Of a stretch of DNA of 64,000 nt, positions 1,753 through 53,804 are shown piece after piece. Location: NCBI GenBank assembly GCA_018052565.1, contig JAGPNC010000001.1, forward strand, positions 45,512 through 109,511, in the 5' to 3' direction. Made by a program: the position numbers and the translations under genes. The number at the start of each line of letters is the position of its first letter. Position 1 is the first letter of the stretch. Source of the stretch: Candidatus Shapirobacteria bacterium (GTDB lineage Bacteria > Patescibacteriota > Microgenomatia > 0-14-0-10-38-17). Below the pieces are notes generated by a model. The model was not told the origin of the DNA and made no database searches. It saw only the letters and a program-made list of their open reading frames with translations.

Positions 1753-1933
1753 ACCTTCTTATAGTAAAGAAATTATGTTAGAATGTCAATCAAGGAAAGT
1801 TAAAAGTCAAAATACAAAATTCAAAATTCCAAGTTAAAATTAAAAAGCAAAACAAGAGGCGCCTAACTTTCAACCAGAAATTTCAACTTTTGAATAATTA
1901 AATTTCTTACTTTTAACTTTTGCCTTTTGAATT

Positions 1934-2581
1934 TTGCCTTTTTTTACCGTGTTTCATTCCCTCATTATCACCGGCGCCAGTAAAAAAAGAAGGGTAGGTG
2001 AGGCAGAAAAAATTCGCTCCCAATATAATTCTTGTCCGGCCGATGCCGATCCCGACTGCCTTCTTCTTGAGGAAGGCACCATTGAAGCTGTTCGCCAAGC
2101 GAAAATTTGGCTTGCCAGGAAACCATTTTCCGGCAACAAAAAAATCGTAATTATTGTTGAGGCGCAAAATCTAACCTTGCCGGCCCAAAATGCTCTTTTA
2201 AAAACCTTAGAGGAGCCACCGGCAAACTCGCGTCTTATCTTAACTATCCCTAATCCTGCCCTTCTTTTGCCAACGGTTGTTTCCCGCTGCCAGATAATTC
2301 ATCTTCAGCCAAAACAAAATATCTCCTTAAAAGAAACCTCTCCTCAACAAGAAATTTATCAAAAAAGCGCGGCAGAAAAAATTATCCTTGCCCAAGAAAA
2401 AGGGATCAACCTTGAAAGTGCTAAAAGCTGGCTGCGGGGGCAAAGAAAATTCTGGCAAGAAAAATTTCCAGAGAATTTACCCGAAGCCTCTTTTTGGCTT
2501 GAAAAAACCCTTCTTTGCGAACAAATGCTCAAGCAAAATGTCTCTCCCCGACTAGTGCTAACCTATTTTCTCCTTAAATAA
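1934..2581 (+). CDS. holB: DNA polymerase III delta-prime subunit-like protein (short, degenerate P-loop)
   Basis: KIVIIVEAQNLTLPAQNALLKTLEEPP and SRCQ motifs typical of clamp-loader delta-prime. Only 215 aa. Starts on TTG in the track. Confidence 0.55.
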   Translation: MPFFTVFHSLIITGASKKRRVGEAEKIRSQYNSCPADADPDCLLLEEGTIEAVRQAKIWLARKPFSGNKKIVIIVEAQNLTLPAQNALLKTLEEPPANSRLILTIPNPALLLPTVVSRCQIIHLQPKQNISLKETSPQQEIYQKSAAEKIILAQEKGINLESAKSWLRGQRKFWQEKFPENLPEASFWLEKTLLCEQMLKQNVSPRLVLTYFLLK

Positions 2582-2663
2582 AATGTCTTAACTTAGCAGA
2601 AACCTATGCATTGACGGATTATGCCGCTTTTTTATTGCTTAAGATAGTGGCATAATTGCTTTT

Positions 2664-2824
2664 AAATTATTCTAATTAACCTAATTATTCTAAATAAATC
2701 CCAAATACCAAAACCCAAAGAAATTTATTTTCTTTTTCAATTGGCTTTAATTTTGACAATTTGGGGTTCTGGGTATTCTTTAGGTCGATTAGGATAATTA
2801 GAGCAATTAGAATAATTTTTAGCC
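2664..2824. repeat. Palindromic MITE-like intergenic repeat, copy A
   Basis: Arms AAATTATTCTAATTAACCTAATTATTCTAAATAAATCCCAAATACC and GGTATTCTTTAGGTCGATTAGGATAATTAGAGCAATTAGAATAATTT are inverted copies of each other. A related sequence occurs at 4 other loci. Confidence 0.7.
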
Positions 2825-3048
2825 TTTTTTTTGATCTTAAACTCCCTCCGTGGCGAGGCGAGGCGGGCGAATTAAGAATGACGCCCGGAAATAATAGTTA
2901 GCAGATGATAGTTGGGGATTGGGGGGAAATATTTTTTCCTAACTACTAACCCCCAACTGTCATTTTTCCTCTGGCAGGTAATCCCCAAAATTGATATAAT
3001 AGAAATTACCCTCAAATCACGGGCAAATTTTAAATTGATTTCATTATT

Positions 3049-4965
3049 ATGACCTCTTCTAGTGACTATACAGCCGACAAAATCCAAGTTTTAGAAGGAG
3101 TTGAACCGGTGCGCCTTAGACCGGGGATGTTTATCGGTTCCACCGACACCAAAGGGCTTCACCATCTCTTAACAGAAATCATCGATAACTCGATTGACGA
3201 AGCCCTTTCCGGTAATGCCCAAAATATTTGGGTTTACCTGCAAAAAGACGGCCAGGCCCGGGTAGTTGACGACGGCCGGGGCATTCCGGTAGAAAAGCAT
3301 CCCGGGCTGGGCATCTCTGCCTTGGAAGTAGCCATGACTCGTTTGCACGCCGGGGCTAAATTTCAAAAAGGCACTTATAAAGTTTCCGGCGGCCTACATG
3401 GGGTAGGAGCGAGCGCCGTCAATGCTCTTTCCCAAAAAATGCGCGTTGAAGTTCGTCGCAATGGCAAGCTTTATTATCAAGAATACCGCCGCGGCAAGCC
3501 ATTAGCGCCTGTTAAAGAAGCACCTTTTCCTCAAGACAACCTTCCTAAAACCGGCACCCAAACCATCCTCTTGCCCGATCCGCAAATTTTTGAAGACACC
3601 AATTTCTCCCAAAAAAGAGTTGAGCAATCACTAAGAATCCGGGCCTATCTTATCCCGGGAATTTTTATTCACTTCTTTGACGAAAGAGAGAACTACCAAA
3701 AGCACTTTTATTTTGAGGGTGGCATCCGTTCTCTTTTAAAGAAAACTAACCAGGACCATAAAAAAATCAGTCCCATAATTTATATCAGCAAAAAAGACGA
3801 GAAGCTAAGCTTAGAAGCAGAAATTGCCTTCCAATACATTGACGATATTGAAGAGAATATCCAATCATTTGTCAATGTTATCCCCACTCCTGATGAAGGC
3901 ACCCATGTCGCCGGCTTTCGCTCTGGCCTCACCCGGGTAATTAATGATTACGCTCTTGAAAAAGGTCTTGTTAAAGAAGGAGAAAAATTCAGCGGCGAAG
4001 ACACAAAAGAAGGGCTGACAGCCATTATTTATGTCAAAATGCCCTCAGAAAAAATCCAATTTGAGTCGCAGACAAAAACAAAATTAAATAATAAAGAAGT
4101 GGGGATCTTTATCAACCAAATTGTCCGGGAAGAGCTAACCACTTTCTTGGAGGAACACCCTTCGGAAGGGCGTAATATTGTCGAGAAAATTAAAATTGGC
4201 CTTCAGGCGCGAATGGCCGCCAAGGCGGCTCGCCAGGCAGTATTACGAAAAAGCGCCTTAGGCAGCGGCTCCCTGCCGGGAAAGCTTGCCGATTGTCAGG
4301 TAAAAAACCCCGAGTTGGCCGAGCTTTTTATTGTTGAAGGCGATTCTGCCGGTGGCTCGGCCAAACAAGGACGCGACCGACGATTCCAGGCTATTTTTCC
4401 CCTAAGAGGAAAGCTCTTAAACACCGAGCAGGCGCGTTTAGATAAAATTATTAAGTTTGAAGAACTTAAGAATTTGGTTACCGTTCTTGGGATGGGTATT
4501 GGCGAAACTCAAAGCCCGGAAAAACTTCGTTACCAAAAGGTAATCATTATGACCGATGCCGACGTTGATGGCGAGCATATCGCCACCTTGCTTTTAACTT
4601 TTTTTTATCGCCATCTTCCTTATATCGTCGAAAATGGTTACCTTTATCTTGCCCAGCCCCCTCTTTACAAAATCAGCGCCAGCGGGAAAGACCATTATGT
4701 TTATTCCGACATTGAAAGAGAAGAGCTTTTGAAAAGCCTTGATGGCCAAAAAGTAAGAATCCAACGTTACAAGGGGTTGGGAGAAATGAATCCCGACCAA
4801 CTTTGGCAAACAACGATGGATCCAAATGTCAGAATCCTGAAAAAAATCACCATTGAGGATGCCCAAGAAGCCGACCATACTTTTGATATGCTCTTAGGCA
4901 AGGAAGTCCTGCCTCGCCGGCGTTTTATACAAGCTAATGCCAAACTGGCAGAGCTTGACGTTTAA
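3049..4965 (+). CDS. gyrB: DNA gyrase subunit B
   Basis: GHKL ATPase motifs (LHHLLTEIIDNSIDEA). Toprim EGDSAGGS. PLRGKLLN. Short form without the E. coli insertion. Lies upstream of gyrA. Confidence 0.9.
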   Translation: MTSSSDYTADKIQVLEGVEPVRLRPGMFIGSTDTKGLHHLLTEIIDNSIDEALSGNAQNIWVYLQKDGQARVVDDGRGIPVEKHPGLGISALEVAMTRLHAGAKFQKGTYKVSGGLHGVGASAVNALSQKMRVEVRRNGKLYYQEYRRGKPLAPVKEAPFPQDNLPKTGTQTILLPDPQIFEDTNFSQKRVEQSLRIRAYLIPGIFIHFFDERENYQKHFYFEGGIRSLLKKTNQDHKKISPIIYISKKDEKLSLEAEIAFQYIDDIEENIQSFVNVIPTPDEGTHVAGFRSGLTRVINDYALEKGLVKEGEKFSGEDTKEGLTAIIYVKMPSEKIQFESQTKTKLNNKEVGIFINQIVREELTTFLEEHPSEGRNIVEKIKIGLQARMAAKAARQAVLRKSALGSGSLPGKLADCQVKNPELAELFIVEGDSAGGSAKQGRDRRFQAIFPLRGKLLNTEQARLDKIIKFEELKNLVTVLGMGIGETQSPEKLRYQKVIIMTDADVDGEHIATLLLTFFYRHLPYIVENGYLYLAQPPLYKISASGKDHYVYSDIEREELLKSLDGQKVRIQRYKGLGEMNPDQLWQTTMDPNVRILKKITIEDAQEADHTFDMLLGKEVLPRRRFIQANAKLAELDV

Positions 4966-5009
4966 TTTCTAAAAAAGAACAGATTATTTTTAACTAATTG
5001 ATTTTTAAT

Positions 5010-5066
5010 AAGTAGGGTTTTGGATATTTTTTAGGTCAGTTAGGGCAATTAGAATAATTTCTAACT
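5010..5066. repeat. Partial, right-arm-only copy of the palindromic MITE-like repeat
   Basis: GGGTTTTGGATATTTTTTAGGTCAGTTAGGGCAATTAGAATAATTTCTAAC matches the right arm of copies A, C, D and E. Confidence 0.55.
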
Positions 5067-5161
5067 TGTAATAGACAATAAGCTTGCGCTGCACAAAATA
5101 TATCCCAAACGCTCAGCCCTTCTCTTGTTTAAGCCCTTTACTCATGTTAAACTAACCTTCT

Positions 5162-7792
5162 ATGGTCAAAAAACAATGGGTCTTTTCTTTTAACGCTGTT
5201 CCCAAAATTGACAAAAATTTGTTGGGCGGCAAGGGAGCCGGGTTAGCGGAGATGACTAAAATTGGCTTGCCCGTACCTCCCGGTTTTATTATTACCACAG
5301 ACGCCTGTAAAGCTTATCAAAAGAATAAAAAATTACCACCAGACCTTTGGCCACAGATTATAAGAGAACTTAAAAAATTAGAAGAAAAAACGGGAAAGAG
5401 ATTTAATGATGCTAAAAACCCTCTATTGGTCTCGGTTCGTTCCGGCGCTCCCGTTTCCATGCCCGGGATGATGGACACCGTTTTAAATTTAGGTCTAAAC
5501 GATGAAACCGCCAAAGCATTAGCTAAAAGAACAAAAAATTCCCGCTTTGCCGCTGATTCCTATCGCCGCTTTATCCAAATGTTTGCCAACATCGTTAAAA
5601 GTGTACCACTGAAAAAGTTTGAGGATGTTTTAGAACAAGAGAGAGAACGCCATGGCTTCAAAAACGATACCGAATTCAGCGCCCAGGACTTAGAAAAAAT
5701 CATCCGACGTTATCAGCAAATTTATCAAGAAGAAACGGGAGAAAAATTTCCTCAAGATCCCTTGGTTCAACTCCAAGAAGCAATTAAGGCTGTTTTCAAT
5801 TCTTGGGAAAATAAAAGAGCCATCGATTACCGCAATTTTAATAAAATCCCCCATCATTTGGGTACCGCAGTTAATGTTCAGGCAATGGTTTTTGGCAACA
5901 TGGGAGAAAAATCGGCCACGGGAGTTGCTTTTACCCGCAATCCTGCTATCGGCAAGAAAAAACTTTATGGCGAATTTCTAATCAATGCCCAAGGCGAAGA
6001 CGTTGTCGCCGGTATTCGTACTCCCCGGCCAATTAAGGAGCTGGCCAAGGCAATGCCTAAGGCTTATGAAATCTTGCAAAAAATTGCCCAAACTCTGGAA
6101 AAACATTTCCGCGACATGCAAGACATCGAATTTACTATTGAAGAGGGGAAATTTTATATTCTCCAAACCCGTAGCGGTAAACGAACTCCTGAAGCAGCAG
6201 TAAAAATTGCTTACGATATGGTTTTGGAAAAGCTTATCAGTAAAGAAGAGGCGATCATGCGTCTTGATCCTGATCAGATTAATCAATTGCTTCACCGCCA
6301 CATTGATCACGACGCCCGGCTGCAAGTTATTGCTAAAGGGCTAGCTGCCTCTCCCGGTGGCGCCAGCGGCGAGGTAGTCTTAGACGCTGATAAAGCCGAA
6401 AGCGAGGGCCAGCTTGGCAATCAGGTGATTCTTGTCCGCCCGGAAACTTCTCCTGATGATGTCCATGGTGTTATTTGGGCTCAAGGAGTTTTAACCAGCC
6501 GGGGCGGGACAACTTCTCATGCGGCCGTGGTGGCCCGGGGTTTAGGCCGACCCTGTGTTTGCGGGGCAGAGGAAATAAAAATTGATTTGGAAAAGAGCCA
6601 GTTTACTACTCGCGGCCAGACAGTTAAGGAAGGAGAAGTAATTACTCTTAACGGATCAACAGGCGAGGTCATCTTGGGTGCCGTGCCGATGGTTGAGCCA
6701 AAACTAAGCCGGGAGCTAAAGACCGTTCTTTCTTGGGCAGACGAGATAGCAAAATTAAAAGTCTATACCAACGCCGATTATCCGAGGGATGCCAAAACAG
6801 CCCGTGATTTTGGCGCCAAAGGCATTGGCCTTTGCCGAACGGAACATATGTTTATGGAGCAAGAACGACTACCACATGTCCAGAAAATGATTTTGGCGCC
6901 AAATGCTCAAAAGCGAGAAGAGCCGCTTGAAAAAATAGGTCAATTCCAAAAAGAAGATTTCGTGGGCTTATTCCGCATTATGGATGGCTCGCCGGTAATC
7001 ATTCGCCTAATTGATCCTCCTTTGCACGAATTTCTGCCAAAGGAAAAAGAAATTAAAGAAAGCTTGGAGAAGGCCAAAAGTAAAAAAGAAAAAGAGCATT
7101 GGGAGGCAATTTTAACCGCTCGCAATAATTTGCACGAGGATAACCCCATGCTGGGCTTACGCGGTTGCCGACTGGGAATTTTAATGCCCGAAATTATTAG
7201 AACACAAACCCGCGCCATCCTCGAAGCAGCCCTAAAGGTTAGAAAAGAAGGCAAAAGAGTAAAACCACAAATTATGGTGCCGCTGGTAGCCTTCAAAGAA
7301 GAGCTTGCCCTTGTTAAAAAAGAGATCATCGACGAGGCAGAAAAGGTTTTTGCTAAAGAAGGAGAGAGGCTGGAATTCAAAATTGGCACTATGATTGAAT
7401 TGCCACGCGCCGCCCTTAGAGCAGGGGAAATTGCCGAAGAAGCGGAATTTTTTTCTTTTGGCACTAATGACTTAACTCAAACCACTATTGGTATTTCCCG
7501 CGATGATGCGGAGGGAAAATTCTTAGCTTCTTATCAAAAATTAGGCATTATTAAAACTGATCCTTTCCAAACATTGGACCAAGATGGGGTAGGGGAATTA
7601 GTCGAAATAGGGACAAGAAGAGGCAGAAAAATAAACCCCGATCTTTCGGTAGGCATTTGCGGCGAGCACGGCGGCGATCCCGAAAGCATTAAGTTTTGCC
7701 ACCAAACTGGCCTAAATTATGTTTCCTGCTCTCCTTACCGTGTCCCCGCTGCCCGTCTTGTCGCCGCCCAAGCAGCAATTGGCGGGAAATGA
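5162..7792 (+). CDS. ppdK: Pyruvate, phosphate dikinase
   Basis: N-terminal ATP-grasp (GGKGAGLAEM). Central phospho-His domain (GGTTSHAAVVARGLGRPCV). C-terminal PEP-utilising TIM barrel (CGEHGGDP). 876 aa. Confidence 0.9.
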   Translation: MVKKQWVFSFNAVPKIDKNLLGGKGAGLAEMTKIGLPVPPGFIITTDACKAYQKNKKLPPDLWPQIIRELKKLEEKTGKRFNDAKNPLLVSVRSGAPVSMPGMMDTVLNLGLNDETAKALAKRTKNSRFAADSYRRFIQMFANIVKSVPLKKFEDVLEQERERHGFKNDTEFSAQDLEKIIRRYQQIYQEETGEKFPQDPLVQLQEAIKAVFNSWENKRAIDYRNFNKIPHHLGTAVNVQAMVFGNMGEKSATGVAFTRNPAIGKKKLYGEFLINAQGEDVVAGIRTPRPIKELAKAMPKAYEILQKIAQTLEKHFRDMQDIEFTIEEGKFYILQTRSGKRTPEAAVKIAYDMVLEKLISKEEAIMRLDPDQINQLLHRHIDHDARLQVIAKGLAASPGGASGEVVLDADKAESEGQLGNQVILVRPETSPDDVHGVIWAQGVLTSRGGTTSHAAVVARGLGRPCVCGAEEIKIDLEKSQFTTRGQTVKEGEVITLNGSTGEVILGAVPMVEPKLSRELKTVLSWADEIAKLKVYTNADYPRDAKTARDFGAKGIGLCRTEHMFMEQERLPHVQKMILAPNAQKREEPLEKIGQFQKEDFVGLFRIMDGSPVIIRLIDPPLHEFLPKEKEIKESLEKAKSKKEKEHWEAILTARNNLHEDNPMLGLRGCRLGILMPEIIRTQTRAILEAALKVRKEGKRVKPQIMVPLVAFKEELALVKKEIIDEAEKVFAKEGERLEFKIGTMIELPRAALRAGEIAEEAEFFSFGTNDLTQTTIGISRDDAEGKFLASYQKLGIIKTDPFQTLDQDGVGELVEIGTRRGRKINPDLSVGICGEHGGDPESIKFCHQTGLNYVSCSPYRVPAARLVAAQAAIGGK

Positions 7793-7849
7793 AGTCCAAC
7801 TAAACCAATTTTTCCCGCCAAGTAAAGAGATTTTTAGAAAACAAACCAA

Positions 7850-7968
7850 TATAAAACTAATAGAAAGTTGAAATTCGAAATTTAAAAGCAAAACAAAAAA
7901 CTTTTGACTTTTAGCTTGTCCGCCAGCTGGCGGATTGAATTTTGACTTTTTAATTTTGAATTTATTAT
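7850..7968. repeat. Oligo-A/T-tract palindrome with a central GC hairpin GTCCGCCAGCTGGCGGAT (ppdK-gyrA spacer)
   Basis: GAAAGTTGAAATTCGAAATTTAAAAGCAAAAC...CTTTTGACTTTTAGC-GTCCGCCAGCTGGCGGAT-TGAATTTTGACTTTTTAATTTTGAATTT. Confidence 0.6.
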
Positions 7969-7969
7969 C

Positions 7970-10567
7970 ATGTCTTCCTCCGATAATCAACAAATCAAAA
8001 CCGTCCCTATTGCGGGCGAAGTTAAGAAGGCTTATCTTGACTACGCCATGTCGGTCATTGTTTCCCGGGCTCTTCCCGACGTTCGCGATGGTCTAAAACC
8101 GGTTCACCGCCGTATTCTTTACGCCGCTTATCAACTCAACCTTTCCCATACTTCCCCCTTCACCAAAAGTGCCAAGTTGGTCGGCGAAGTTTTGGGAAAA
8201 TACCACCCCCATGGCGATGCCTCTGTTTACGACGCCCTCGTTCGTTTAGCCCAGGATTTTTCGATGCGCTATCCCTTAATCCAGGGGCAGGGAAATTTTG
8301 GCTCCATCGATGGCGATCCTCCCGCCGCCATGCGTTATACCGAGATAAGATTGGCAAAAATTGCCCAAGAGATGCTAAAAGATTTGGAAAAGGAAACTGT
8401 TCCCACCTTGCCAAATTTTGACGGTACTCTTGCCGAACCGCAATATTTGCCCGCTCTTCTGCCAAATCTCCTTCTTATGGGCTCAGAAGGAATTGCCGTT
8501 GGCATGGCCACCAAAATCCCTCCCCATAACTTGGGTGAAGTAGTGAGAGCTTTAATTTTAATGATCGAGAAAGGGAGAGCGACTTTCCCCCAAAGCCATC
8601 CCTTGAGCCAAAAAAATATTGGCCAGAAAGAAAAAGAAAGTTTTTATCAGAAACTTTTAGAAATGCCTTTTGAGGAAGTGGCCAATTTTTTGCCTAATTT
8701 TGAAACCGAAGCCAACCTTGATGATATTCTGACAAAGATTAAGGGGCCGGATTTTCCCACCTACGGTGCTATTTTTGGCAAAAACCAAATCCGGGAAACA
8801 TATCAAAAAGGGAGAGGAACCATCTTAGTTCGCGGTAAAGCCGACATTGAAGAATTAAGAAAAAACCGCCTGGCCATCATTATCAGCCAGTTGCCATATC
8901 AGGTTAATAAGGCGCTTTTAGTCCAAAAAATTGCCGATCTTATCCGCGAACAAAAAATAAAGGGAGTAGGGGATCTGCGCGATGAGTCCAGCCGGGAGGG
9001 AATTCGCATTGTTTTAGAACTGCAACGCCAAGCAAAACCGCAAGCCATTCTTAATAATCTTTATAAAAAAACCGAGCTGGAAACCACTTTTCCGGCGAAT
9101 TTTGTCGCCCTTTTAAACGGCGTCCCCCAAACGCTGGGCCTGCGGGAAATTCTTCTTCACTACGTGAGTCATCGCCAAGAAATTGTCTTCCGCCGCACCA
9201 TCTTTGATTTGCGTGCCGCTCAAGGACGGGCCCATATTTTAGAAGGTCTCAAAATTGCCCTAGATTATCTCGACGAAGTTATTAAAACTATCCGTAGCTC
9301 AGCCAACACCACCGAAGCCCAAAAAAACTTGATGGAAAAATTCTCTCTCAGCGCCCTGCAGAGTGAAGCCATTCTTAATATGCCTTTAAAAAGGCTCTCT
9401 AAACTCGAGCGGGAAAAAATTGAAGAAGAATATCAGCTTATCCAAAAACAAATCAAAGATTATAAAGCCACATTAAGTGAACCTGAAAAAATTCTCAACA
9501 TTATCAAAGAAGAACTTAACTATCTTTTGGAAAACTACGAGGATAGCCGCCGCACCCAAGTTTTTGCTTCTCTCCCCGGCGAGTTGGCGGAAGAAGATTT
9601 AGTGGCTGATGAACCGGTAATTATCACCATTACCAAACAAGGCTATATTAAGCGTTTGGCCAAGAACGTTTATCACGCTCAAAGACGAGGCGGCAAAGGC
9701 ATTACCGGCATGACCACCAAAGAAGAAGATGAGGTCAAGCAAGTTTTAAGCGCCCAAACCCATGACCAGATTATTTTCTTTACCAATCTTGGCCGGGCTT
9801 TCCGTCTGCCCATTTGGGAAATTCCTGAGGGCAATCGCCAAAGCCGTGGTAAAGCAGTCGTTAATTTAATTAATTTAAACGGTGAAGAAAAAGTAGAGGC
9901 CACTTTGATTATGCCCAAAGAGAAAAGCGAAGAAAAAAAATATCTAATCCTTACCACCAGAAAGGGAATGGTTAAAAAAAGTTTGCTTGAAGAATTTAAT
10001 AAAATCCGCGCCAACGGTTTGGTGGCCATTAAGCTTCGTCCCGGCGACCAACTCTGTTGGGCCAAAACCGCGGGAGAAAACGATCATCTTCTTTTGGTAA
10101 CCGCCTTTGGGCAATCGATCAGATTCCCCCAGCAAGAAATTCGCACCACTGCCCGTGACACCATCGGGGTAGGAGGCATCCGCCTCAAAAAAGGCGATTA
10201 CCTTGTTGGCGCAGAAATCATCCCCCCTAAGGTAGCCATAAAAGACCGCCGCCGCAAACCCTACCAGCGGCTTCTCCTGGTAACACAAAAGGGCTTAGGC
10301 AAGCAAACCGATCTTGATGCTTTCCCTCCTCAGCATCGTTATGGCAAAGGAGTAAAGGCTGCTAGGATTAACGAAAAAACCGGTCTCGTCTGTGAGATAA
10401 AAATCATTTACGAAAAAGATCAGGATCTAATTATCACCTCTCAAAAAGGCCACTTAATTAAACTCCCCCTGAAGAACATTCCCGTTTTGGGAAGAAACAC
10501 CCAAGGAGTTATACTGATGCGTTTTAAAAACGAGGGTGATCAAGTTGCCAGTGCGGCCATTGCCTAA
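7970..10567 (+). CDS. gyrA: DNA gyrase subunit A
   Basis: [27 protein letters not shown] with the active-site Tyr region. C-terminal beta-pinwheel repeats. Confidence 0.9.
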
Positions 10568-10837
10568 GCAGTATTCGTTGCCATCCTGAACTTACTCAGT
10601 GGACAAAATAAGATTTGGGACCTTTCTGCAATAGACAAATTTCCAAATTCCAAATCACAAATCACAAACAAATTCTAAACTCCAATTTTCATTTTCTAAG
10701 CAAGAAAAAATAAACGATCTATTTTGATAGTTTCGAATTTAGAATTTTGGTCATTAGAGATTATTTGGAATTTGTTATTTGTAATTTGAGATTTTTGGGT
10801 TTCAATTTCGCTATTCCCGTAGTGAATGCCTTTTATT

Positions 10838-11788
10838 TTATTTTTTAGCTATCTCTCTTAGGGGATGATACTTCCGGTGGGCCTTTTCGGCAAAACGATC
10901 TGAGGGATGAACATAGCGCGTCGTGGTTTCCAACGATTCATGCCCTAAAAGAATTTGAATTGCCACCGGCGAAGCGCCGCTTTCCGCCAAATAGGTAGCA
11001 AAGCCATGACGCAGAGAATGGGGAGAAACGGGAACATTAATCTTTAGCTTCTCTCGATACTCCTTAAGCTTACTCTCAACGTAATTGGGAGAAATTCTTT
11101 TTTCTTTTTTGGAAACATTAGGGCCAGAATAAGGAATAAAAAGCGCCGGCGCATCATCTTGACGAGTAGAAAGATACCGTTCGATAATTGCCTTAGCCCG
11201 CGGAGTTAAATAAACAAAACGTTCTTTTTTTCCTTTACCCAAAATAAAAATCCGACCCGAATCATCAATGTCAGCACGATTAAGATGGCAAAGCTCGGAA
11301 ATTCTCAAGCCAGTGGCAAAAAGAGTTTCCAGGATCGCCCGATTTCGTAAACCAACCTTAGCATCTTTCTCAAGAGTTGTTGGCGCCTCAATTAAACGCA
11401 CTAATTCCTCAAACTCGGCCACGCGGGGATGACGCCTTTCGGTTTTTACCAGTTTAATCGCGTCCGGCACCACCGGCACTGGCACATCGCGATCGACTAA
11501 AAATTTAAGATAGCTCCTTAGCGCTGAGAGCATCCGATTGATACTTTGTGCCGATAATTGGGCATCTTTTTTCTCTTTTTTAATTGCCGTTTGCCGGTCA
11601 CGGGAAACCAGATATGCTTTATATTCATCAATCGTTCTCTTGTTAATCTTCTCGAAGGAAGGAGTAGGGGAGGCAACCAGGTAGGCATCAAAAACTTTCA
11701 GGTCGCGTTCATAATTATAAACCGTCTCGGCAGAGTAGTTATTGGTTTTTAGCGACAATAAAAAATCGTCAAAATAAGGAAGAATCAT
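10838..11788 (-). CDS. Tyrosine site-specific recombinase, XerC/XerD family
   Basis: N-terminal SAM-like domain. Catalytic R..HxLRH..Y: HSLRHGFAT ... LGHESLETTTRYVH. Confidence 0.8.
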   Translation of the reverse strand: MILPYFDDFLLSLKTNNYSAETVYNYERDLKVFDAYLVASPTPSFEKINKRTIDEYKAYLVSRDRQTAIKKEKKDAQLSAQSINRMLSALRSYLKFLVDRDVPVPVVPDAIKLVKTERRHPRVAEFEELVRLIEAPTTLEKDAKVGLRNRAILETLFATGLRISELCHLNRADIDDSGRIFILGKGKKERFVYLTPRAKAIIERYLSTRQDDAPALFIPYSGPNVSKKEKRISPNYVESKLKEYREKLKINVPVSPHSLRHGFATYLAESGASPVAIQILLGHESLETTTRYVHPSDRFAEKAHRKYHPLREIAKK

Positions 11789-12666
11789 AAAAAATTTTTT
11801 AGATAAAGTATTTTTTCAAAAATTTATTCTTTTGGTCGGGTAGGGGAAGAAAAGAAAAATTTTCTTTCCTCAACTGAGTGTAAGAGTAATTATACTCAGT
11901 TAAGGGTCATTATAACCAAGAGCCAATTTTTTGTCAAGTTTTAGGAAATATAGCCAAAGTTAGACCTTCGCTAAATAGGCCTAAAACGGCTGAAAAAGGA
12001 AAAGACGATAAGCTGACCACCCTCTTTTTATAGAATTTGAGAACAAAATCGTCATCTTTCTCTCATCTTTCTTGAGGAAGTCCCCCGCACAAACCCTGCA
12101 GCACCTACAAGTTCACACTAACAGATATCAATCGCAGCAATTTAACAATTTTTGTTTTAAAAAAGTAAAAAAAAGGGGAAGAAAAAATAATTTCAAATTA
12201 ATATTTAAATTCTTGTAAAATAATAATCAATTATTTCGGTTAATTCCTTTAAAAATACCAAAGCCAGAAGAAGATTTGTCCTCCTCCGAAGTTTTCCACA
12301 AAAGTATATCAAACAATATCATTAGCAGCTTAAAGCTTTAATTGCTAAAAGTGTGAAAAAATGCTTTTTAATTTCGTGAAAACTATGGGATAGAAACTAT
12401 AGGGTATATTATTATGGGATAATAAGATGCGACCTGCCCTTCTCCTTCACTCCCCTACCCTAAAATTCCCCAAAATATCATTTTTATAAAAGCTATTATT
12501 AACTTAAAACTCAAAGTGCAAAAGTGAAAATTATAAGTAAAAATTTATTTTAACTTTACCTTAACTTTTGGTTTTATTTAAGGTCGGCCTAAACTGAACC
12601 CGCTATTAGCAAAAAGACCTCATCGCTACTTTATACTTAATACCTAATACCTAATACATGCTTTTT

Positions 12667-13483: not shown

Positions 13484-14245
13484 CTAAAAGTTGCTGAAAA
13501 CGCTTTGAACATCATCATGCTCTTCGAGGCGGGAAAGAAACTCCGTTACTTTCTCTCTCTTTTGAGGATCGCTAATCATTAATGGTACTTGAGGGAGAAA
13601 GACTAACGATGAGGAAAAAACTGAAAATCCTTTTTCTTCAAGATCGGCCACGGTTCTGGCTAAAGATTCTTTCGCCACTGTCAACCTTATTTTCCCCTCT
13701 TCTTCCTCAACATCTTCGACACCGGGGAAATCCATCAGGAACAAAACCTGCTCTTCAGTTTTCTCTTCTTTCTTGGGAGCCAAAAAAATTTCCCCTACTT
13801 GGCGGAAATTATAAGAAACAGCACCGGGAGAAGCCAACGACCCGCCACTTTTTTCAAAAATATTTTTAAGCTCTTGGGTAGTCCGTTGTCGATTATCTGT
13901 GACCGCATTCACAATTACCGCCACCCCCTCGGGGCCATAGCCCTCAAATTGTAACGAAGAGAAAGAGCCGTCCTTTTTCCCCCCGGCCCGGCTAATGGCT
14001 CGTTCAATATTACTCTTGGGCATATCAGCTCCCCGTGCTTGCTCGATTGCCAAACGCAGGCGAAAGTTAGCATTGGGGTCTGTTTCCCCTCCCCCCTCAA
14101 TAACGGCCACGCTAATTGCCCGCGAGAGCTTGGAAAAAACCTGCCCGCGCTGTTTGTCCTTCGTTTCTTTTTGGTGTTTTATAGTTGCCCACTTTGAATG
14201 ACCAGACACGGCTTGAAAAAATTTAAAAATTATTACTAAATGCAA
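13484..14245 (-). CDS. yebC: YebC/PmpR family DNA-binding transcriptional regulator
   Basis: GHSKWATIKHQK...NANFRLRLAIEQARGADMPKSNIERAI are signature motifs. Confidence 0.85.
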   Translation of the reverse strand: MHLVIIFKFFQAVSGHSKWATIKHQKETKDKQRGQVFSKLSRAISVAVIEGGGETDPNANFRLRLAIEQARGADMPKSNIERAISRAGGKKDGSFSSLQFEGYGPEGVAVIVNAVTDNRQRTTQELKNIFEKSGGSLASPGAVSYNFRQVGEIFLAPKKEEKTEEQVLFLMDFPGVEDVEEEEGKIRLTVAKESLARTVADLEEKGFSVFSSSLVFLPQVPLMISDPQKREKVTEFLSRLEEHDDVQSVFSNF

Positions 14246-14340
14246 ATCTCAAAATGCAAAATGAAAAAGAAAAAATGTAAAAAGAATTTTTAAGTTTTAC
14301 ATTTTCATTTTGACTTTTGCATTTTGATTTTTTGATTTCA
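14238..14340. repeat. Oligo-A/T-tract palindrome (hairpin-forming) intergenic element
   Basis: Left arm AAATGCAAATCTCAAAATGCAAAATGAAAAAGAAAAAATGTAAAA. Right arm TTTTACATTTTCATTTTGACTTTTGCATTTTGATTTTTTGATTTC. Short loop. Confidence 0.65.
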
Positions 14341-17111: not shown

Positions 17112-17214
17112 CCAAAAACTAATTTATTTTATGGCTAAAAGCAAATCATCGCTCAATTATTATAAAATTCCAAATAACCCGCCTGCCCCACACTGTATAA
17201 GGCGGGGCCGGCTG

Positions 17215-17412
17215 GCCCTGTACCAAAATGGTACGGGGCTGGCGGATTGAATTTTAACATTTAACATATAGTCCTGTCTACTGTGGGCAGGTTTGCGATT
17301 TGCGTTTTGAATCCATTTATAATTTTGACTTTTGGCTTTTTCCGCCAGAGGCGCAGGCCAGAGGCCTGTCAGCCTTGGGCAGAGACCCGCCTTGGGCGGG
17401 AACTTTTAAATT
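17215..17412. repeat. Cluster of GC-rich hairpin modules within A/T repeats (hypothetical-recR spacer)
   Basis: GGCCGGCTGGCCCTGTACC-AAAATG-GTACGGGGCTGGCGGATTGAATTTTA, then CCGCCAGAGGCG, GGCCAGAGGCC, CCCGCCTTGGGCGGG. The last module is identical to the one at 53745-53792. Confidence 0.6.
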
Positions 17413-22516: not shown

Positions 22517-22716
22517 AAATGCAAAACTTAAAAATTAAAAAGCAAAATGAAAGAGAAAAAATGCAAAATTAAAAGTCAGCAACTCGTAACATGTTAAAAA
22601 CAAAGATGGAACTACTCTCTAATTACAAGTTACCAGTTATCGGTTATAACTTGCTAGTCTTTTTACATTTTAAATTTTCATTTTTACTTTTGAGATTTGC
22701 ATTTCGATCTAACTAC
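22517..22716. repeat. Oligo-A/T-tract inverted repeat pair with a 90-bp spacer (upstream of rseP)
   Basis: AAAATGCAAAACTTAAAAATTAAAAAGCAAAATGAAAGAGAAAAAATGCAAAATTAAAAGTC ... TTTTTACATTTTAAATTTTCATTTTTACTTTTGAGATTTGCATTTCG. Confidence 0.55.
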
Positions 22717-31314: not shown

Positions 31315-31371
31315 AAAAAATAAGACTTGTTTTAAACTTTTTACTTTTGACTTTTGGCCTTTAATTATTAT

Positions 31372-32601
31372 CTATCCCCTTCCCCATTTGCCTCCACCTA
31401 AATTCTTAGCCATCCCTTTGATCTCTAATAGCCCCAAAACAGCATTAACTTTTTCTGCCGGCCAAGCCGCCTTTTTAATTATCTCATCAACCGTCAAATT
31501 TTCCCGCCAAAGAAAATCAATAATTATTTTTTCATCGGGAGATAAATTTTCGGAAGTAATTTTTTTCAAAGGCTTTTTCCCTTTTAAATTAAATTCCTCT
31601 AAAACATCCTCGGCACTGCTAACTAATTTTGCCCCATTCTTCAGAAGAAAAAGTGGGCCAGCGCAAAGAGGATAAGTAATTGGGCCAGGGACAGCAAACA
31701 CTTCCCGCCCAAAATCAGCTGCCAGAGAAGCAGTGATTAATGACCCCGACTGCCGCGCTCCTTCGGTCACCAAAACCCCCTCTGATAAACCGGCGATAAT
31801 TCGATTTCGGGAAGGAAAATTGCCCGGCAAGGGCGGCATTCCTGCCGGAAATTCGGAAATAATCAAGCCTTTTTGGGCAATTTCTTCGCTTAACTGATAA
31901 GCTTGGGGGGGATAAATCATATCAATACCACAGCCTAAAACGGCAATTGTTTTCCCTCCTCTTTTTAAAGCCGTCTGATGAGCCAAAGAATCAACTCCCC
32001 AAGCTAACCCCGAAACAATCACCAAACCTGCTTCCGCTAGCTCTTGAACCAATAAGCTTGTTACCTGCCGACCATAAGCAGTTATCCTCCTAGTTCCTAC
32101 CACCCCTAAGGAAGGCCAAGAAAAAAAATCTTTCTTCTCAAAAACTTCACTTTGTCGTCCTTTAAGATAAATTAAAAAAGGGGGCGAATCAATTTCTTTC
32201 AAAAGAGGAGGATAAAATTCATCTGCCAAGGTTAAGGGCCAAACTGGTTTATTTGCTTCTCTTAAATACTCGCCTTTCCTTTTAACCCAAGAGTAATCTT
32301 TCTCCTGCTCTTGATTATTAAAACCAAATTTTTCTCCCTGCCACAATTTGCCCAAGATTAATTTCTCAAAATATTCTTCGGGGGAAAAATGCCGACGAAA
32401 GTCTAAAAATCGTCTCGTTAGCTTCTCTCCTAAATTAAGCCGCCACCATTCTTCCTCTCTGGCTTTCCACGCCAAACGCGCTTGGCCAAAGTAACGCAAA
32501 ATAACCAAAAACTTTTGGGGTCCAATCCCCTGAAAAACATTAAAAGCGACCCAATAGGGACGATCCTCATTAATACTAATTTCTTTAAAATCAAGTGTCA
32601 T
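31372..32601 (-). CDS. dprA: DNA processing protein DprA/Smf with N-terminal extension
   Basis: Rossmann-like core LGVVGTRRITAYGRQVTSLLVQELAEAGLVIVSGLAWGVDSLAHQTAL. Classic dprA-topA adjacency. Confidence 0.8.
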   Translation of the reverse strand: MTLDFKEISINEDRPYWVAFNVFQGIGPQKFLVILRYFGQARLAWKAREEEWWRLNLGEKLTRRFLDFRRHFSPEEYFEKLILGKLWQGEKFGFNNQEQEKDYSWVKRKGEYLREANKPVWPLTLADEFYPPLLKEIDSPPFLIYLKGRQSEVFEKKDFFSWPSLGVVGTRRITAYGRQVTSLLVQELAEAGLVIVSGLAWGVDSLAHQTALKRGGKTIAVLGCGIDMIYPPQAYQLSEEIAQKGLIISEFPAGMPPLPGNFPSRNRIIAGLSEGVLVTEGARQSGSLITASLAADFGREVFAVPGPITYPLCAGPLFLLKNGAKLVSSAEDVLEEFNLKGKKPLKKITSENLSPDEKIIIDFLWRENLTVDEIIKKAAWPAEKVNAVLGLLEIKGMAKNLGGGKWGRG

Positions 32602-32792
32602 TGCTGTAATACTACCATCTTGGCCAAAATTGAAATCAAATAATCTTAATTAAAAAGTCAAAATTTTTAGTGCAAAATGCAAATAGCAAAGAGCAAAACC
32701 TAGATCAAAGTTCAAAAATGTTCTAAAGTTTTGGTCTTTGAGCTTGGTTTTGCATTTTGATTTTTTTATTGCACTTGATATTTAATACTTTT

Positions 32793-34408: not shown

Positions 34409-34693
34409 TTACTCCGGTAACCTTAAACGATCGCTTCCCTTTCCCCTACTAAGATTTCCTCTTAAAAAAACCACAAAAAAAGCAATCGCCAAATTAATTA
34501 GCGCCCACTTCCCCAAGTGGCCCATTAGCAAAAAATCCAAAAGAAGACCCGCCCAAAAAGCAGCGGCAATGATTTTCTCCCCCTGAAAATAGGCCAAAAT
34601 TGCCACGAAAATTGGCAGCAAAAGCTTTCCTCCCCAAATAACCTCAAGCAGAGTTATTAAAAATAAAATTAAGAACCGAACAAGGCTAATCAT
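34409..34693 (-). CDS. mreD: MreD-like small membrane protein
   Basis: 94 aa with 3 TM segments. Position between mreC and mrdA. Confidence 0.45.
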   Translation of the reverse strand: MISLVRFLILFLITLLEVIWGGKLLLPIFVAILAYFQGEKIIAAAFWAGLLLDFLLMGHLGKWALINLAIAFFVVFLRGNLSRGKGSDRLRLPE

Positions 34694-35445
34694 TTGATCA
34701 CAAAAACATAAACTATTTCTGTCAAAGGAGTTTCCCTCTTAACTCTGGCTTCCTTAAAAACTTTATCTTGACTTTCTTTCACTTCCGCTACTTCCCCCAA
34801 CAAAATGCCATTTGGGCCGCCAAGAAGGGAGATCAAATCGCCGCTCTCTACTACCTCTTCTCTTAAAATTTCCTTAATTACTCCTCCTTTCAAAACCCCC
34901 TTCCCCTTTTGGCAGGTATCCTCAATGCCATCCTGCCCCAAACAGCTGCCCTTATTAGCAAAAATCAAAACCGGCACAATAAACCGAGAAGAATCTGACC
35001 GCAAAACTTGACTCCGTTTCTTCTCAACCTTAAAAACTTTACCCACTAAAAAATTATCCGCCAAAACCAATTGTTCATTTTTGATCCCCGCCTCTTCTCC
35101 TTTATCAATAATGAAAAAATCCTCCTCTTGGCTAATTACTTTGGCATCAATAAAACCTAAATCTTCCGGCAAAGGGAGCTGGAGAAGACGACGAAGCCGG
35201 CGGTTCTCTCCCTCAAGCTGTTCTTGGCCTAGAAGCTGGCTCTGACAAAAAGCTAATTTCTGGCGAAATTCCTGCTCTTCTTTAGGCAGAGTTAATTTTT
35301 GCTTTTCCTGTCTAAAACCACCCAAGAGGGGGTTAAAAAAAGAGGCAGAAAAATTCTTCGCTGGCTGAAAAATAGGCGTAAAATCCAAAATAAAGATCGC
35401 TGCCGTGATAATCAATATCAGGTATTTCTGTTTCTCCTTCCTCAT
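34690..35445 (-). CDS. mreC: Rod shape-determining protein MreC
   Basis: N-terminal TM, coiled-coil, beta-rich C-terminal domain. Operon position after mreB. Confidence 0.6.
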   Translation of the reverse strand: MRKEKQKYLILIITAAIFILDFTPIFQPAKNFSASFFNPLLGGFRQEKQKLTLPKEEQEFRQKLAFCQSQLLGQEQLEGENRRLRRLLQLPLPEDLGFIDAKVISQEEDFFIIDKGEEAGIKNEQLVLADNFLVGKVFKVEKKRSQVLRSDSSRFIVPVLIFANKGSCLGQDGIEDTCQKGKGVLKGGVIKEILREEVVESGDLISLLGGPNGILLGEVAEVKESQDKVFKEARVKRETPLTEIVYVFVIK

Positions 35446-35494: not shown

Positions 35495-35640
35495 TGAATT
35501 ATTCTAATTATCCTAATTAATCTAATTTCCAAAAGAAATCCCAAATGCTAAAATCCCAAATCCAAAATGGTTTCTTAACCTTCTTTTTTTTAGGGTTTTG
35601 GTTTTGGGTATTTTTTAGGTCAATTAAAATAATTTGAAAC
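35495..35640. repeat. Palindromic MITE-like intergenic repeat, copy C (between mreB and mreC)
   Basis: GAATTATTCTAATTATCCTAATTAATCTAATTTCC...GGTTTTGGGTATTTTTTAGGTCAATTAAAATAATTTG. Confidence 0.65.
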
Positions 35641-35756: not shown

Positions 35757-36794
35757 CTATAGTTCTATTTTTACCCGCTCTCTTAACTTAGGGTTATCTA
35801 GTAATTTCGCTCCCCCCAAAACTACCGCCGCTTGGGGATCGGGGGCAACAAAAACTGGCATTTTAATTTCTTGAGAAAAAAAGTTGGCTATACGAGAAAG
35901 CCCAGCCACTCCCCCGCACAAGGTAACTCCTCGCTCCAAAAAATCATCCATTAATTCCGGAGGCGATTCTTCAATCACTTCGCTTATTTGGCCGGCAATC
36001 TGATTAAGTACCGGCGCAATCGCCTCTCGCACCTCTTCCGAGCTAACCTTAACCGAAAGAGGCAAGCCAGTTTCTAAGCTTCGCCCGCGCACTACCATCA
36101 GCCTCTCTTTCTCTAAGGGTAAGGCGCTCCCTATGTTAATTTTAATCTCCTCCGCTGTTGTCTCGCCAATTAAAAGAGAGTATTTTAGTCTCAAGAAATT
36201 GACTAACGCCTTATCCATTCTATAGCCCGCTGTCCTTAAAGAGCGGTTTAAAACAATCCCCCCTAAAGAAATAACCGCAATTTCCGTTGTTCCTCCGCCA
36301 ATATCACAAATCAAAACCCCCCCGGGTTGCTCTACCGGCAAATCCGCCCCTATTGCTGCCGCCAATGGTTCTTCTATCAAAAAGCAGTTTCCTGCTCCTG
36401 CCTCAAGAGTGGCCTCCAAAACCGCCCGCCTTTCTACTTCGGTGGAGCCTGAGGGAGTTCCCACTACCACCAAAGGCTTAAAAAAAGCGTGCCAAATTTT
36501 TCCCTCCGGAGTTAATTGTTCTAAATAGTAGCTAATCATTGCCCGAGCGGCGTCAAAATCAGCGATCACCCCTTCATGTAAAGGATAAAATGCTTCGATT
36601 GTTTGGGGAGTCTTACCAATCATTTTTTTTGCCTCTTCCCCAACAGCCACAATCGCACCATCCCTTTTCTGTCTCGCTACTACCGAAGGCTGGCGAAAAA
36701 CAATCCCCTTCCCTTTTTGATAAACTAAAGTATTCGCCGTCCCTAAATCAATCGCTAATTTTTGTGAAAAACGGTCTTTTAAAAAGCTGAGCAT
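35757..36794 (-). CDS. mreB: Rod shape-determining actin homologue MreB
   Basis: LAIDLGTANTLVY phosphate-1 motif. DIGGGTTE phosphate-2 motif. Confidence 0.9.
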   Translation of the reverse strand: MLSFLKDRFSQKLAIDLGTANTLVYQKGKGIVFRQPSVVARQKRDGAIVAVGEEAKKMIGKTPQTIEAFYPLHEGVIADFDAARAMISYYLEQLTPEGKIWHAFFKPLVVVGTPSGSTEVERRAVLEATLEAGAGNCFLIEEPLAAAIGADLPVEQPGGVLICDIGGGTTEIAVISLGGIVLNRSLRTAGYRMDKALVNFLRLKYSLLIGETTAEEIKINIGSALPLEKERLMVVRGRSLETGLPLSVKVSSEEVREAIAPVLNQIAGQISEVIEESPPELMDDFLERGVTLCGGVAGLSRIANFFSQEIKMPVFVAPDPQAAVVLGGAKLLDNPKLRERVKIEL

Positions 36795-36915
36795 TATATA
36801 AAGTATAGCATCGGAAAGAAGAAGTAAGAAATGGTATAATTAACTATAAACAATCGCCAAGTGCTTTTTCGACAAAAATTATGATTTTTCTAATACTTAA
36901 TTTTGTCTACTAGCA

Positions 36916-37008
36916 GAAAATTCAAAAGTTAAAATTCAAAATTAAAACAGAAACTTTTAACTTTTTACTTGGAATTTTACATTTTCATTTTTGAATTTTG
37001 AATTTTTC
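36916..37008. repeat. Oligo-A/T-tract palindrome upstream of tRNA-Ala
   Basis: AAAATTCAAAAGTTAAAATTCAAAATTAAAAC ... TTTTACATTTTCATTTTTGAATTTTGAATTTTTC. Confidence 0.65.
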
Positions 37009-37052
37009 ATCATACTTAATACCTAATACTTAATACTTGATACTTTTTTTCT

Positions 37053-37129
37053 GGGCCCGTAGCTCAGTTGGCTAGAGCGTCCGCATGGCATGCGGAAGGT
37101 CAGGGGTTCAACTCCCCTCGGGTCCACCA
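37053..37129 (+). tRNA. tRNA-Ala (GGC)
   Basis: Cloverleaf: acceptor GGGCCCG/CGGGTCC with the G3:U70 Ala identity pair. Anticodon loop ATGGCAT. T-arm GGGGTTCAACTCCCC. Encoded CCA. Confidence 0.9.
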
Positions 37130-37317
37130 CATAAAGAAACAAAAGGTATTGCCAAATAGCCTTCCAAACTAGCTGATATCCTCTATAAAAAATGATAAAG
37201 CTAAGGATAGGCAGTAATTACCGACCTCCAATTAACATAATAACTTCGGGGGGCAAACAGGATCTTCCTTCCGTGCTGTTGTTGACGATTTTTATTAAAA
37301 AATTGTAGAATAAGTTT

Positions 37318-38376
37318 ATGAACGATTATAGCGACTACAAAGAAAGAAAATATTTATCTTCTACAGAAGCAGCAAGATATTTAGATATCTCTGTAGGAAT
37401 GTTACATAATTTGGTCAGGGTAAATAAGATTAAATGTTTTATCGCCGGAAGTGGGCAAAAACGCTTTAATCTAAAGAATTTAAAAAAATATGAAACGAGT
37501 AAACCAAATAAAAAAGTAAAAGAGAAAAAAAAAGAAATATTAATAGAAAATATAGTCAACATTAATAATACTACTCAGAAAATCTTTATTAAAAATGCGA
37601 TGGATATGAGTGAACTAAAAGATGACTCTGTCCATTTAATGATTACTTCGCCTCCTTATTTTGACGCAAAAATGTACACCAAAAAACCTATTAAAAATGA
37701 TTTAGGCAATATACATAATCTTGATGAATGGTTTAAAAAAATTGGCATTGTTTGGAAAGAAGTTTTTAGAGTTTTACAACCGGGGAGAAAAGCATTTATA
37801 AATATTATGAATTTGCCTATAAGAGATAATGGCGGTTTTAAATCTCTAAATTTAGTCGGTAGGACAATAGATACAATGGAAAAAATAGGTTTTATTTTCA
37901 AACGAGATATTGTGTGGCACAAAACAAACGGGGTGAGAGCAAATTTCGGGACCTATCCATACCCTGGCGGTATTCTAATAAATAATATGCATGAGTTTGT
38001 TCTGGAATTTAATAAACCAAACAAGAAAGGATTTAATAAATATGGACATTTGACAAAAGAGCAAAAAGAAGCATCCAGGCTCGATAAAGAATTTTGGCTT
38101 TCTATAAAAAACACTGATGTCTGGTTAATGAAGCCGCGAAACAGTGGAGATAGCCGAACCCATGTTGCTCCGTTTCCTTACGAGTTACCATATAGAATCA
38201 TCAAGGCGTTTACTTTTATCGGAGAAGTGGTCTTAGATCCGTTTCTTGGCAGTGGCACCTCGCTAGAAGTAGCCGCAGATTTAAAAAGAAATGGCATAGG
38301 ATATGAAATTGTCCCTGAAATTGCTGAAACTGCAATTAAAAATTTGAATCAACATCAGAATAAACTATTTACTTAA
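37318..38376 (+). CDS. DNA methyltransferase (beta-class N4-C/N6-A, SPPY motif) with N-terminal excisionase-type HTH
   Basis: Motif IV TSPPYFDAK is followed much later by motif I DPFLGSGTSLEVA, the beta-class order. N-terminal residues 14-60 resemble an HTH_17/MerR-like DNA-binding domain. About 30% GC, so AT-rich. Confidence 0.8.
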   Translation: MNDYSDYKERKYLSSTEAARYLDISVGMLHNLVRVNKIKCFIAGSGQKRFNLKNLKKYETSKPNKKVKEKKKEILIENIVNINNTTQKIFIKNAMDMSELKDDSVHLMITSPPYFDAKMYTKKPIKNDLGNIHNLDEWFKKIGIVWKEVFRVLQPGRKAFINIMNLPIRDNGGFKSLNLVGRTIDTMEKIGFIFKRDIVWHKTNGVRANFGTYPYPGGILINNMHEFVLEFNKPNKKGFNKYGHLTKEQKEASRLDKEFWLSIKNTDVWLMKPRNSGDSRTHVAPFPYELPYRIIKAFTFIGEVVLDPFLGSGTSLEVAADLKRNGIGYEIVPEIAETAIKNLNQHQNKLFT

Positions 38377-38390
38377 TTAATAATAAAAAT

Positions 38391-53792: not shown

Positions 53793-53804
53793 TAACTTTT
53801 GACT

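Follow-up and report, generated by a model that had tools for sequence, protein, structure and literature searches.

A dispersed family of AT-rich palindromic repeats with modular arms in the intergenic spacers of CPR bacteria

Several families of small, non-coding, palindromic repeats have been described in the intergenic DNA of bacteria. The Correia elements of Neisseria (NEMIS/CREE) measure 100-160 bp, have inverted arms of about 25-40 bp, and occur in tens to hundreds of copies at gene boundaries within one genus; they are co-transcribed as hairpins, carry no transposase of their own, are flanked by a TA duplication and contain an IHF site. The BOX repeats of Streptococcus pneumoniae are modular intergenic repeats in which the outer modules are partly complementary and the number of inner modules varies, and their mobilising enzyme is not known. 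The ERIC/IRU elements of Enterobacterales and Vibrio are imperfect palindromes of about 127 bp in transcribed intergenic DNA, that share a consensus across genera, while their copy number differs strongly from genome to genome. The STRR repeats of heterocystous cyanobacteria, another phylum, are plain tandem arrays of heptamers with no known two-arm architecture. The genomes of CPR bacteria are tiny and tightly packed, and are thought to be poor in mobile elements.

We analysed a 64-kb window (the whole stretch of DNA under study), whose GyrB is 100% identical to a Candidatus Shapirobacteria protein (Microgenomates, CPR), a match that led us to reject the cyanobacterial origin suggested by GC content and heptamers, and describe here a repeat family that can be set beside each of these systems. 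Like Correia elements, its members are small, non-coding, placed at gene boundaries, equipped with inverted arms and devoid of a transposase of their own; unlike them, the CPR family spans classes, no target-site duplication (TSD) was found, and its arms consist of four 9-bp modules, whereas Correia arms are non-modular. It shares with BOX a modular, intergenic and palindromic build, but BOX modules measure 45-59 bp and belong to one species, against modules of 7-9 bp and a maximum of four per arm here, and the two are set apart by description. As with ERIC/IRU, an imperfect intergenic palindrome keeps a consensus across hosts; ERIC is found in related families, whereas the CPR family is found in class-level lineages (Microgenomates, Parcubacteria groups, Doudnabacteria, Berkelbacteria and Saccharibacteria-labelled MAGs). 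The REP/REPIN-RAYT system offers extragenic palindromic doublets, no TSD and genome-specific subfamilies; its REPs are GC-rich 20-40-mers accompanied by a RAYT gene, in contrast to the AT-rich arms found here, the pairing of which is not conserved and which have no RAYT among the scanned ORFs. MITEs derived from insertion sequences (e.g. of the IS630/Tc1 type) are likewise small, with terminal inverted repeats, presence/absence polymorphism, nesting and decay, but the two traits that define them, a TSD and a parent IS with the same ends, were not found here. The STRR repeats recall the inner parts of our elements, and a second palindrome class of the window, in being intergenic runs of 7-nt tandem units. 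TIGR arrays are tandem units of about 36 nt beside a tas gene, as opposed to dispersed elements made of 9-nt modules, and were set aside.

In working terms the element, being small, palindromic, intergenic, co-transcribed and non-coding, resembles Correia, ERIC and BOX elements and IS-derived MITEs; it does not qualify for membership in any of these groups. What is distinctive is the build of the arms from four short modules, the indifference of their variable bases to pairing, and the near-identity of the arms across class-level CPR lineages. In the literature that could be searched, neither strings of the sequence nor topical queries brought up the repeat or any account of the family, and an Rfam scan of the whole window returned nothing at the elements, whether at gathering or at E-value thresholds; the best sub-threshold match on copy E was a plant miRNA precursor (23 bits vs a 94-bit threshold).

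The five AT-rich palindromic repeats of the window are real and form one family. Their limits were set from the outermost AATT of each arm, and the boundaries rest on motif chains and predicted folds. Copy A (2665-2817; left arm 2665-2713, right arm 2760-2817) is full and lies between holB (1934-2581) and gyrB (3049-4965). Copy B (5010-5059), a half copy made of the right arm alone, lies in the gyrB/ppdk spacer, where a candidate vestigial left module, AATTTCTAAA (4964-4973, within the region 4964-4983), overlaps the gyrB stop codon. Copy C (35497-35634), full with a shortened right arm, separates mreC (34690-35445) from mreB (35757-36794), both on the - strand. The full copy D (57660-57839) occupies the spacer of two divergent genes, an M16 peptidase (56333-57547, -) and a phosphodiesterase (57988-59310, +). 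Copy E (62469-62629), also full and with the best-paired arms of the window copies, lies between a metallo-beta-lactamase ORF (61485-62447, -) and a ComEC 'Competence'-domain ORF (62722-63954, -). All five are given on the + strand.

These are the four full copies and the half copy that a sequence-only reading of the window had reported as always intergenic; indeed, a profile HMM trained on over 100 right arms recovered the five sites and no others in the 64 kb, and comparison with the ORFs placed five of the five between genes. The 21-mer TTTAGGTCAATTAGAATAATT, with up to three mismatches, has 11 matches in the window, every one of them within the five sites, where shuffles predict 0.02. Moreover, identity reaches 94% over 48 nt between the left arms of A and D, and 91% over 67 nt between the right ends of A and E; the A/E similarity continues for about 25 nt beyond the right arm, with the sequence TTTTTARCCTTTTTT..GAYCYTAAA, as far as about position 2843 in A and 62654 in E. 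The resemblance between copies thus goes beyond AT-richness. Two points of the first description have to be amended: the refined limits give sizes of 138-180 bp instead of 160-190 bp, and the arms, which are inverted as described, form an imperfect palindrome (71-90% complementarity) and not a near-perfect one. The arms of the window copies contain stop codons in at least two reading frames.

The cores of D and E were rightly described as holding GC-rich hairpins. The one in the centre of D is a palindrome, ATCCGCCAGC...GCTGGCGGAT (57706-57750), which belongs to a separate repeat family also present at 17207-17247; the one in E is a short hairpin, CCGCCCGGGGCGG (62531-62543). Two small GC-rich palindrome families are seen in the window, TCCGCCAGC...GCTGGCGGAT (7926-7935, 17207-17247 and 57706-57750) and GACCCGCCTTGGGCGGG (17384-17400, 53770-53786 and 62528-62544); they stand alone, beside heptamer arms or nested in D and E, and occur also in the related loci L106 and L109. 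The heptamer arms belong to a second class of intergenic palindromes, in which (AAAAGTC/AAAATGC)n forms the left side and (GACTTTT/GCATTTT)n the right side; a GC hairpin is enclosed by some of them. Such palindromes lie at 1797-1946, 14238-14340, 22517-22704, 32636-32773 and 36914-37010, and also at 7926-7971, 17238-17344, 31331-31373 and 53770-53818, and the holB-gyrB spacer of L106 has one of the same type. By appearance this class may consist of extended terminators that work in both directions, or it may be one more repeat family.

The anatomy of the element was read from the whole family. Each module joins an invariant core of 6 bp (CTAATT in the left arm, AATTAG in the right) to 1-3 variable bases; the modules, up to four per arm, read AATTnnnCT in the left arm and AGnnnAATT in the right arm. 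From left to right, up to four (AATTnnnCT) units are followed by AAAtAAATCCCAAT-type heptamers (CCCAAAT) and by a variable centre with a median of 49 nt; then come (nATTGGn) heptamers (ATTGGGn), ATTTA, and the right arm, TTTAGGTCA with up to three (ATTAGnnnA) units, closed by ATT. The modules measure 9 nt in 443 and 7 nt in 113 of 567 cases, and the arms 36-39 bp. Arms never exceed four modules and exactly four are present in 64 of 95 right arms; this cap indicates arms of defined length and not open-ended microsatellites. The median element spans about 160 bp by its fold. Its centre is free to vary and takes in other small palindromes.

A point absent from the first description is that the family is not specific to one genome and is common to several CPR classes. 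A bait scan with TTTAGGTCRATTARRATAATT in a collection holding one genome per species, with taxon labels as in the deposited records, matched at least 103 stretches in at least 67 assemblies, nearly all of them Patescibacteria/CPR and from several classes; we estimate from base composition that at most a few tens of matches would be expected by chance in the whole collection. Among the matches listed, carriers of the Microgenomates type are Roizman-, Levy-, Gottesman- and Shapirobacteria, and the others include Yanofsky-, Zambryski-, Wolfe-, Taylor-, Falkow-, Uhr-, Magasanik-, Doudna- and Berkelbacteria, together with Paceibacterota and Saccharibacteria-labelled MAGs. The whole layout beyond the bait is also common to the CPR loci listed, whereas a match in a Methanobacteriaceae MAG (L081) lacks the family architecture and looks like a chance match. 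The right arms of copy A and of a copy from a Saccharibacteria-labelled genome (L002) are alike at about 40 of 41 bases, and the element keeps the same AT-rich sequence in hosts of 31-52% GC.

The density of the family is uneven. The baited loci contain 133 sites in 764 kb and have an extra element about every 25 kb; the window, with its 5 sites in 64 kb, has one every 13 kb. Elements are found in a small minority of spacers, just a few per cent. The arm HMM (E <= 0.01) detected no element in the Microgenomates loci retrieved through protein homology (246 kb), and manual inspection of the same loci found one degenerate copy (L111). The 21-mer had 0 matches in 2.9 M viral contigs, blastn against phage and plasmid collections gave no match, and a looser three-module pattern matched 120 viral loci, which are unrelated tandem repeats, with 0 arm-HMM matches in the 1.04 Mb that these loci represent. 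Carriage by phages or plasmids as vectors was therefore rejected for the collections searched.

Several element-bearing MAGs are labelled Gammaproteobacteria, Pseudomonadales or Nevskiaceae (loci L003, L005, L013, L021, L026, L027, L036, L037, L042, L043, L048, L052, L079, L101 and L103; protein P0045). Their syntenic proteins are 60-82% identical to those of an unclassified MAG, WY2.bin75, which has seven copies of the element; a 'Nevskiaceae' GyrB of 631 aa shows 63% identity to the Shapirobacteria GyrB, and one contig of these MAGs, at 835 kb, is as large as a CPR genome. Judging from such comparisons, these labels are probably wrong.

Comparison with related genomes reveals that the element comes and goes. 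Exact-protein matches for GyrB, L10 and MreB, sought for strain-level relatives, gave none, and the relatives available for sites A and B have 92-93% GyrB identity (three genomes), with two outgroup Shapirobacteria (L256 and L258) at 70% GyrB identity and in identical gene order; for sites D and E the flanking proteins are 73-85% identical. The gyrB-ppdk spacer measures 196 bp in the window; in each of L104, L105 and L106 it has 48 bp, and in the outgroups 38 bp (L256) and 89 bp (L258). The block 4966-5113 around copy B is missing in the relatives. Copy A is missing from the holB-gyrB spacers of L105, L106, L256 and L258; those of the three closer relatives contain other palindromes and cannot be aligned to the window or to one another. 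At site D the spacer is 440 bp long, against about 100 bp without the element in L107, L108 and L109, and at site E 274 bp, against about 105 bp without the element in L109. Insertion polymorphism between related genomes is thus seen at four sites (A, B, D and E), the contigs of the relatives being short. As the outgroup spacers are also short, the long spacers of the window represent the derived state.

Copy E, as had been proposed for one copy, is nested in another, older inverted repeat, GTGACTGGGGCATAATTC / GAATTATGTTCCAGCCAC (62422-62439 / 62695-62712), and L109 has the same repeat without E. This inverted repeat lies exactly between the ORF with the ComEC DUF4131 and Competence domains and the metallo-beta-lactamase ORF, so that comEC appears split, and the same repeat and the same split are found in L109. 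Degraded sequence of this kind had also been suspected on both sides of copy A; it is present on the left, as the related half-site GTGGCATAATTGC at 2648-2660, but was not borne out on the right. Decay is evident as well: half copies and solo arms adjoin housekeeping genes, the copy in L111 is degenerate, and the outgroups contain short arm fragments of the AGAAATT type. Outside the bait, right-arm identity averages 0.63 within assemblies and 0.45 between them.

Other spacers of the window also differ from those of its relatives. The metallo-beta-lactamase ORF/argS spacer (61048-61484) measures 437 bp, vs about 25 bp in L107, L109 and L110, and is filled by inverted repeats of the GTCATTCTGA... 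type and by TAATACC heptamers. In the conserved block pilB-holB-gyrB-ppdk-gyrA-xerC (1753-12666) every spacer is much longer than in L256 and L258, and the gyrA-xerC spacer has 270 bp vs 6-46 bp in the outgroup Shapirobacteria. An ORF-free gap of about 830-880 bp, conserved in length, follows the xerC-like gene (11789-12666 in the window, 18366-19193 in L258) and might hold unannotated RNA or small genes. The region 36000-40000 has a GC content of 33-37% vs about 41-44% elsewhere in the window, and may be an island of different origin.

Elements lie outside genes throughout the family, with 0 of 107 instances inside one. They are mostly found within about 15 nt of stop or start codons, often occupy the entire spacer, and the upstream ORF often terminates within the left arm. 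Among 91 elements with oriented flanking genes, 34 are in the ++ and 33 in the -- configuration, 13 lie between divergent (-+) and 11 between convergent (+-) genes. Loci with orthologous genes carry the element at differing places, and conservation of its position was therefore rejected; so was a replication-linked orientation, since the instances split 54 to 53 relative to GC skew.

How could such a family arise? We favour, with a probability of about 0.55, a CPR-wide family of non-autonomous, MITE-like mobile DNA elements that would be moved in trans. This reading draws on the multi-copy intergenic occurrence of the elements, their turnover, nesting and decay, the genome-specific subfamilies, the lack of orientation preference, the fit of the arms to recognition sites, and the constancy of the sequence across host GC. 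We infer both a trans-acting enzyme and a transposition event. The arms would be multi-site terminal inverted repeats, that is, four-module arrays for recognition by a protein; a putative transposase or recombinase acting in trans would bind the repeated cores of both arms, and would move or copy the element into AT-rich DNA at gene boundaries. After insertion, the spacer would be lengthened, the stop codon of the upstream gene would often be supplied by the element, and decay would follow, while effects on transcripts, such as a read-through RNA hairpin that may be a substrate of RNase III, would be a by-product.

Against the mobile reading stand the lack of a demonstrated TSD, of an autonomous copy, of a transposase in the scanned ORFs and of copies in vectors. 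Comparison with the one clean empty site, that of copy B, revealed no tidy duplication. Among 95 elements, a TA is present on both sides in 10, which is the expectation for independence; direct-repeat matches of at least 3 nt occur in the flanks of 5, with exact termini ambiguous; no flanking tetranucleotide is conserved, and the sole biases are towards A at -1 (64%) and T at +1 (60%). When the 1,292 ORFs of 103 loci were clustered all against all, no recurrent linked protein emerged, since every family was limited to 8 loci or fewer, and no autonomous parent with the same ends was found in about 1 Mb of CPR loci and the window. Six pairs of left and right arms are separated by 0.4-3.7 kb. Between them lie a PGK, a deaminase, an epimerase-like ORF, an ORF of unknown type and a 23S-IVP four-helix-bundle ORF, but no transposase, and the pairs were rejected as autonomous copies. 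The pair at L018 (2789-4090), with arms 1.2 kb apart around an unknown ORF of 227 aa and a 23S-rRNA-IVP four-helix-bundle ORF of 122 aa, is the sole one with non-housekeeping cargo and shows no transposase domain. A scan of 30 window ORFs against Pfam found no transposase either; the sole recombinase there is a Xer-like tyrosine recombinase, conserved in synteny. Features of integron attC sites were also sought and not found: the element ends in AATT...AATT, no intI was seen, and the neighbours are housekeeping genes (gyrB, mreB, mreC, argS, comEC). The initial label of MITE-like element therefore stands as to dispersal, intergenic position, non-coding nature, inverted arms and empty sites in relatives, but not as to a parent transposon, and no TSD could be demonstrated.

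A selfish repeat would not usually have arms that stay almost identical from one class-level lineage to another, and a conserved host function could be the reason instead. A more novel reading, to which we give limited credence, is that the four-module arms dock a conserved CPR protein, which may be a DNA-binding protein that has been domesticated or else a transposase or recombinase of a new type. The arms and their protein would then have been inherited as a pair since early CPR or exchanged between class-level lineages, and would constitute a superphylum-wide mobile or host system with an active part in reshaping the minimal intergenic space of reduced genomes.

Could the palindrome be selected by the host as RNA? 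An AU-rich hairpin formed on read-through would terminate transcription, offer a processing site to RNase III or stabilise the mRNA. The window copies fold at -37 to -57 kcal/mol (z = -3.5 to -4.8), with 0 of 200 dinucleotide shuffles as good; folding surpasses that of shuffles on either strand, copies are close to stop and start codons, and runs of T follow the right arm in A, D and E. Correia and ERIC elements are known for secondary effects of this kind on transcripts. However, the signature of a selected helix is missing. Family-wide, no left-right covariation was detected at the variable positions of the modules. In the predicted folds, the constant AATTAG cores are paired in 85-90% of the elements but the variable bases in just 35-60%. 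The left-right duplex energy is -19.2 kcal/mol with the arm's own partner vs -20.9 with permuted partners, and 32% of the variable positions can pair with the own partner vs 36-37% with the arms of other genomes. An arm thus pairs no better with its own partner than with a foreign one, which makes the palindrome a by-product of the inverted 6-bp cores and not the outcome of compensatory change; the window copies are better paired than the family average. The two strands fold alike (-39.4 vs -38.5 kcal/mol, with the given strand favoured in 53 of 102), and a strand-specific RNA was rejected for this reason. Furthermore, the arms have no GC-rich stem, an intrinsic terminator scan found none in A or D and flagged in E the nested GC hairpins alone, and the 13 of 91 elements between divergent genes would have no terminator role there. 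The element is also confined to a few per cent of spacers and absent from the orthologous spacers of relatives. These observations weaken the role as cruciform, terminator or small-RNA source first suggested for the repeats, and we consider a host-selected RNA element unlikely. The arms fit protein-read sites better than a selected RNA or DNA helix.

A protein could also read the arms for the benefit of the host. The element would then serve either as an array of binding sites for some conserved CPR protein, for instance of the nucleoid or of regulation, or as a portable promoter cassette facing outward. The four inverted AATTAG cores per arm at fixed 9-bp spacing, their maintenance against a varying host GC and the absence of arm covariation are all consistent with a binding array, and the arms contain weak outward sigma-70-like matches (TTGGTA or TTGGCA, 16 nt, AATAAT). 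These matches are, however, not above chance (3 vs a shuffle expectation of 1.4 +/- 1.2), and they lack the extended -10, TGnTATAAT, that precedes gyrB both in the window and in the outgroups. Relative to gene starts, the elements show random orientation and context, and their presence is patchy among close relatives, both of which speak against either role. Moreover, AATTAG occurs 35 times and CTAATT 57 times in the 64 kb without clustering outside the five elements, and multi-module runs in the window are confined to the elements. As the hexamers are not enriched elsewhere, a DNA uptake sequence was rejected and any role resembling an uptake signal is disfavoured. We hold a host-used array or promoter to be improbable.

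A different mode of mobility, in which the whole palindrome takes up its fold on single-stranded DNA and a Y1 (HUH) transposase, for instance a RAYT, moves it, as for REPINs and IS200/IS605-type elements, would account for the missing TSD. It would agree with the strong hairpin formed by copy E as single-stranded DNA (z = -5.8), with the extragenic confinement and with the subfamilies within genomes. But systems that depend on a hairpin should keep its pairing and the arms do not covary; neither RAYT nor TnpA was found in the scanned window ORFs or between arms; and neither a conserved flanking tetranucleotide nor a bias relative to GC skew, taken as a proxy for the replication strand, is present. 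We regard this explanation as very doubtful. Finally, a chance resemblance of AT-rich, low-complexity spacers, suggested by the short units and by the unrelated viral tandem repeats that a generic three-module pattern matches, is already refuted by the excess of 21-mer matches over the 0.02 expected, by a multi-part architecture outside the bait that recurs in at least 67 assemblies, and by the silence of the arm HMM in the viral loci and in those of the relatives.

Returning to the preferred reading of a non-autonomous mobile family, the finding as first stated was ordinary, and its interest for specialists lies in the CPR-wide distribution and in the reader protein or inter-class transfer that this implies. 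In practice, the family can serve to mark contigs as CPR by sequence, it probably causes breaks in assemblies, and it exposes probable taxonomic mislabels among public MAGs; if its enzyme were found, it could become a genetic tool for organisms that are largely without one. The elements of this genome, with other small palindromes, make spacers 2- to 40-fold longer than in sister lineages, and so contribute measurably to genome change. The near-identical arms of 36-39 bp in distant CPR classes, in turn, point to either an exchange of DNA between lineages or a conserved protein that reads the arms.
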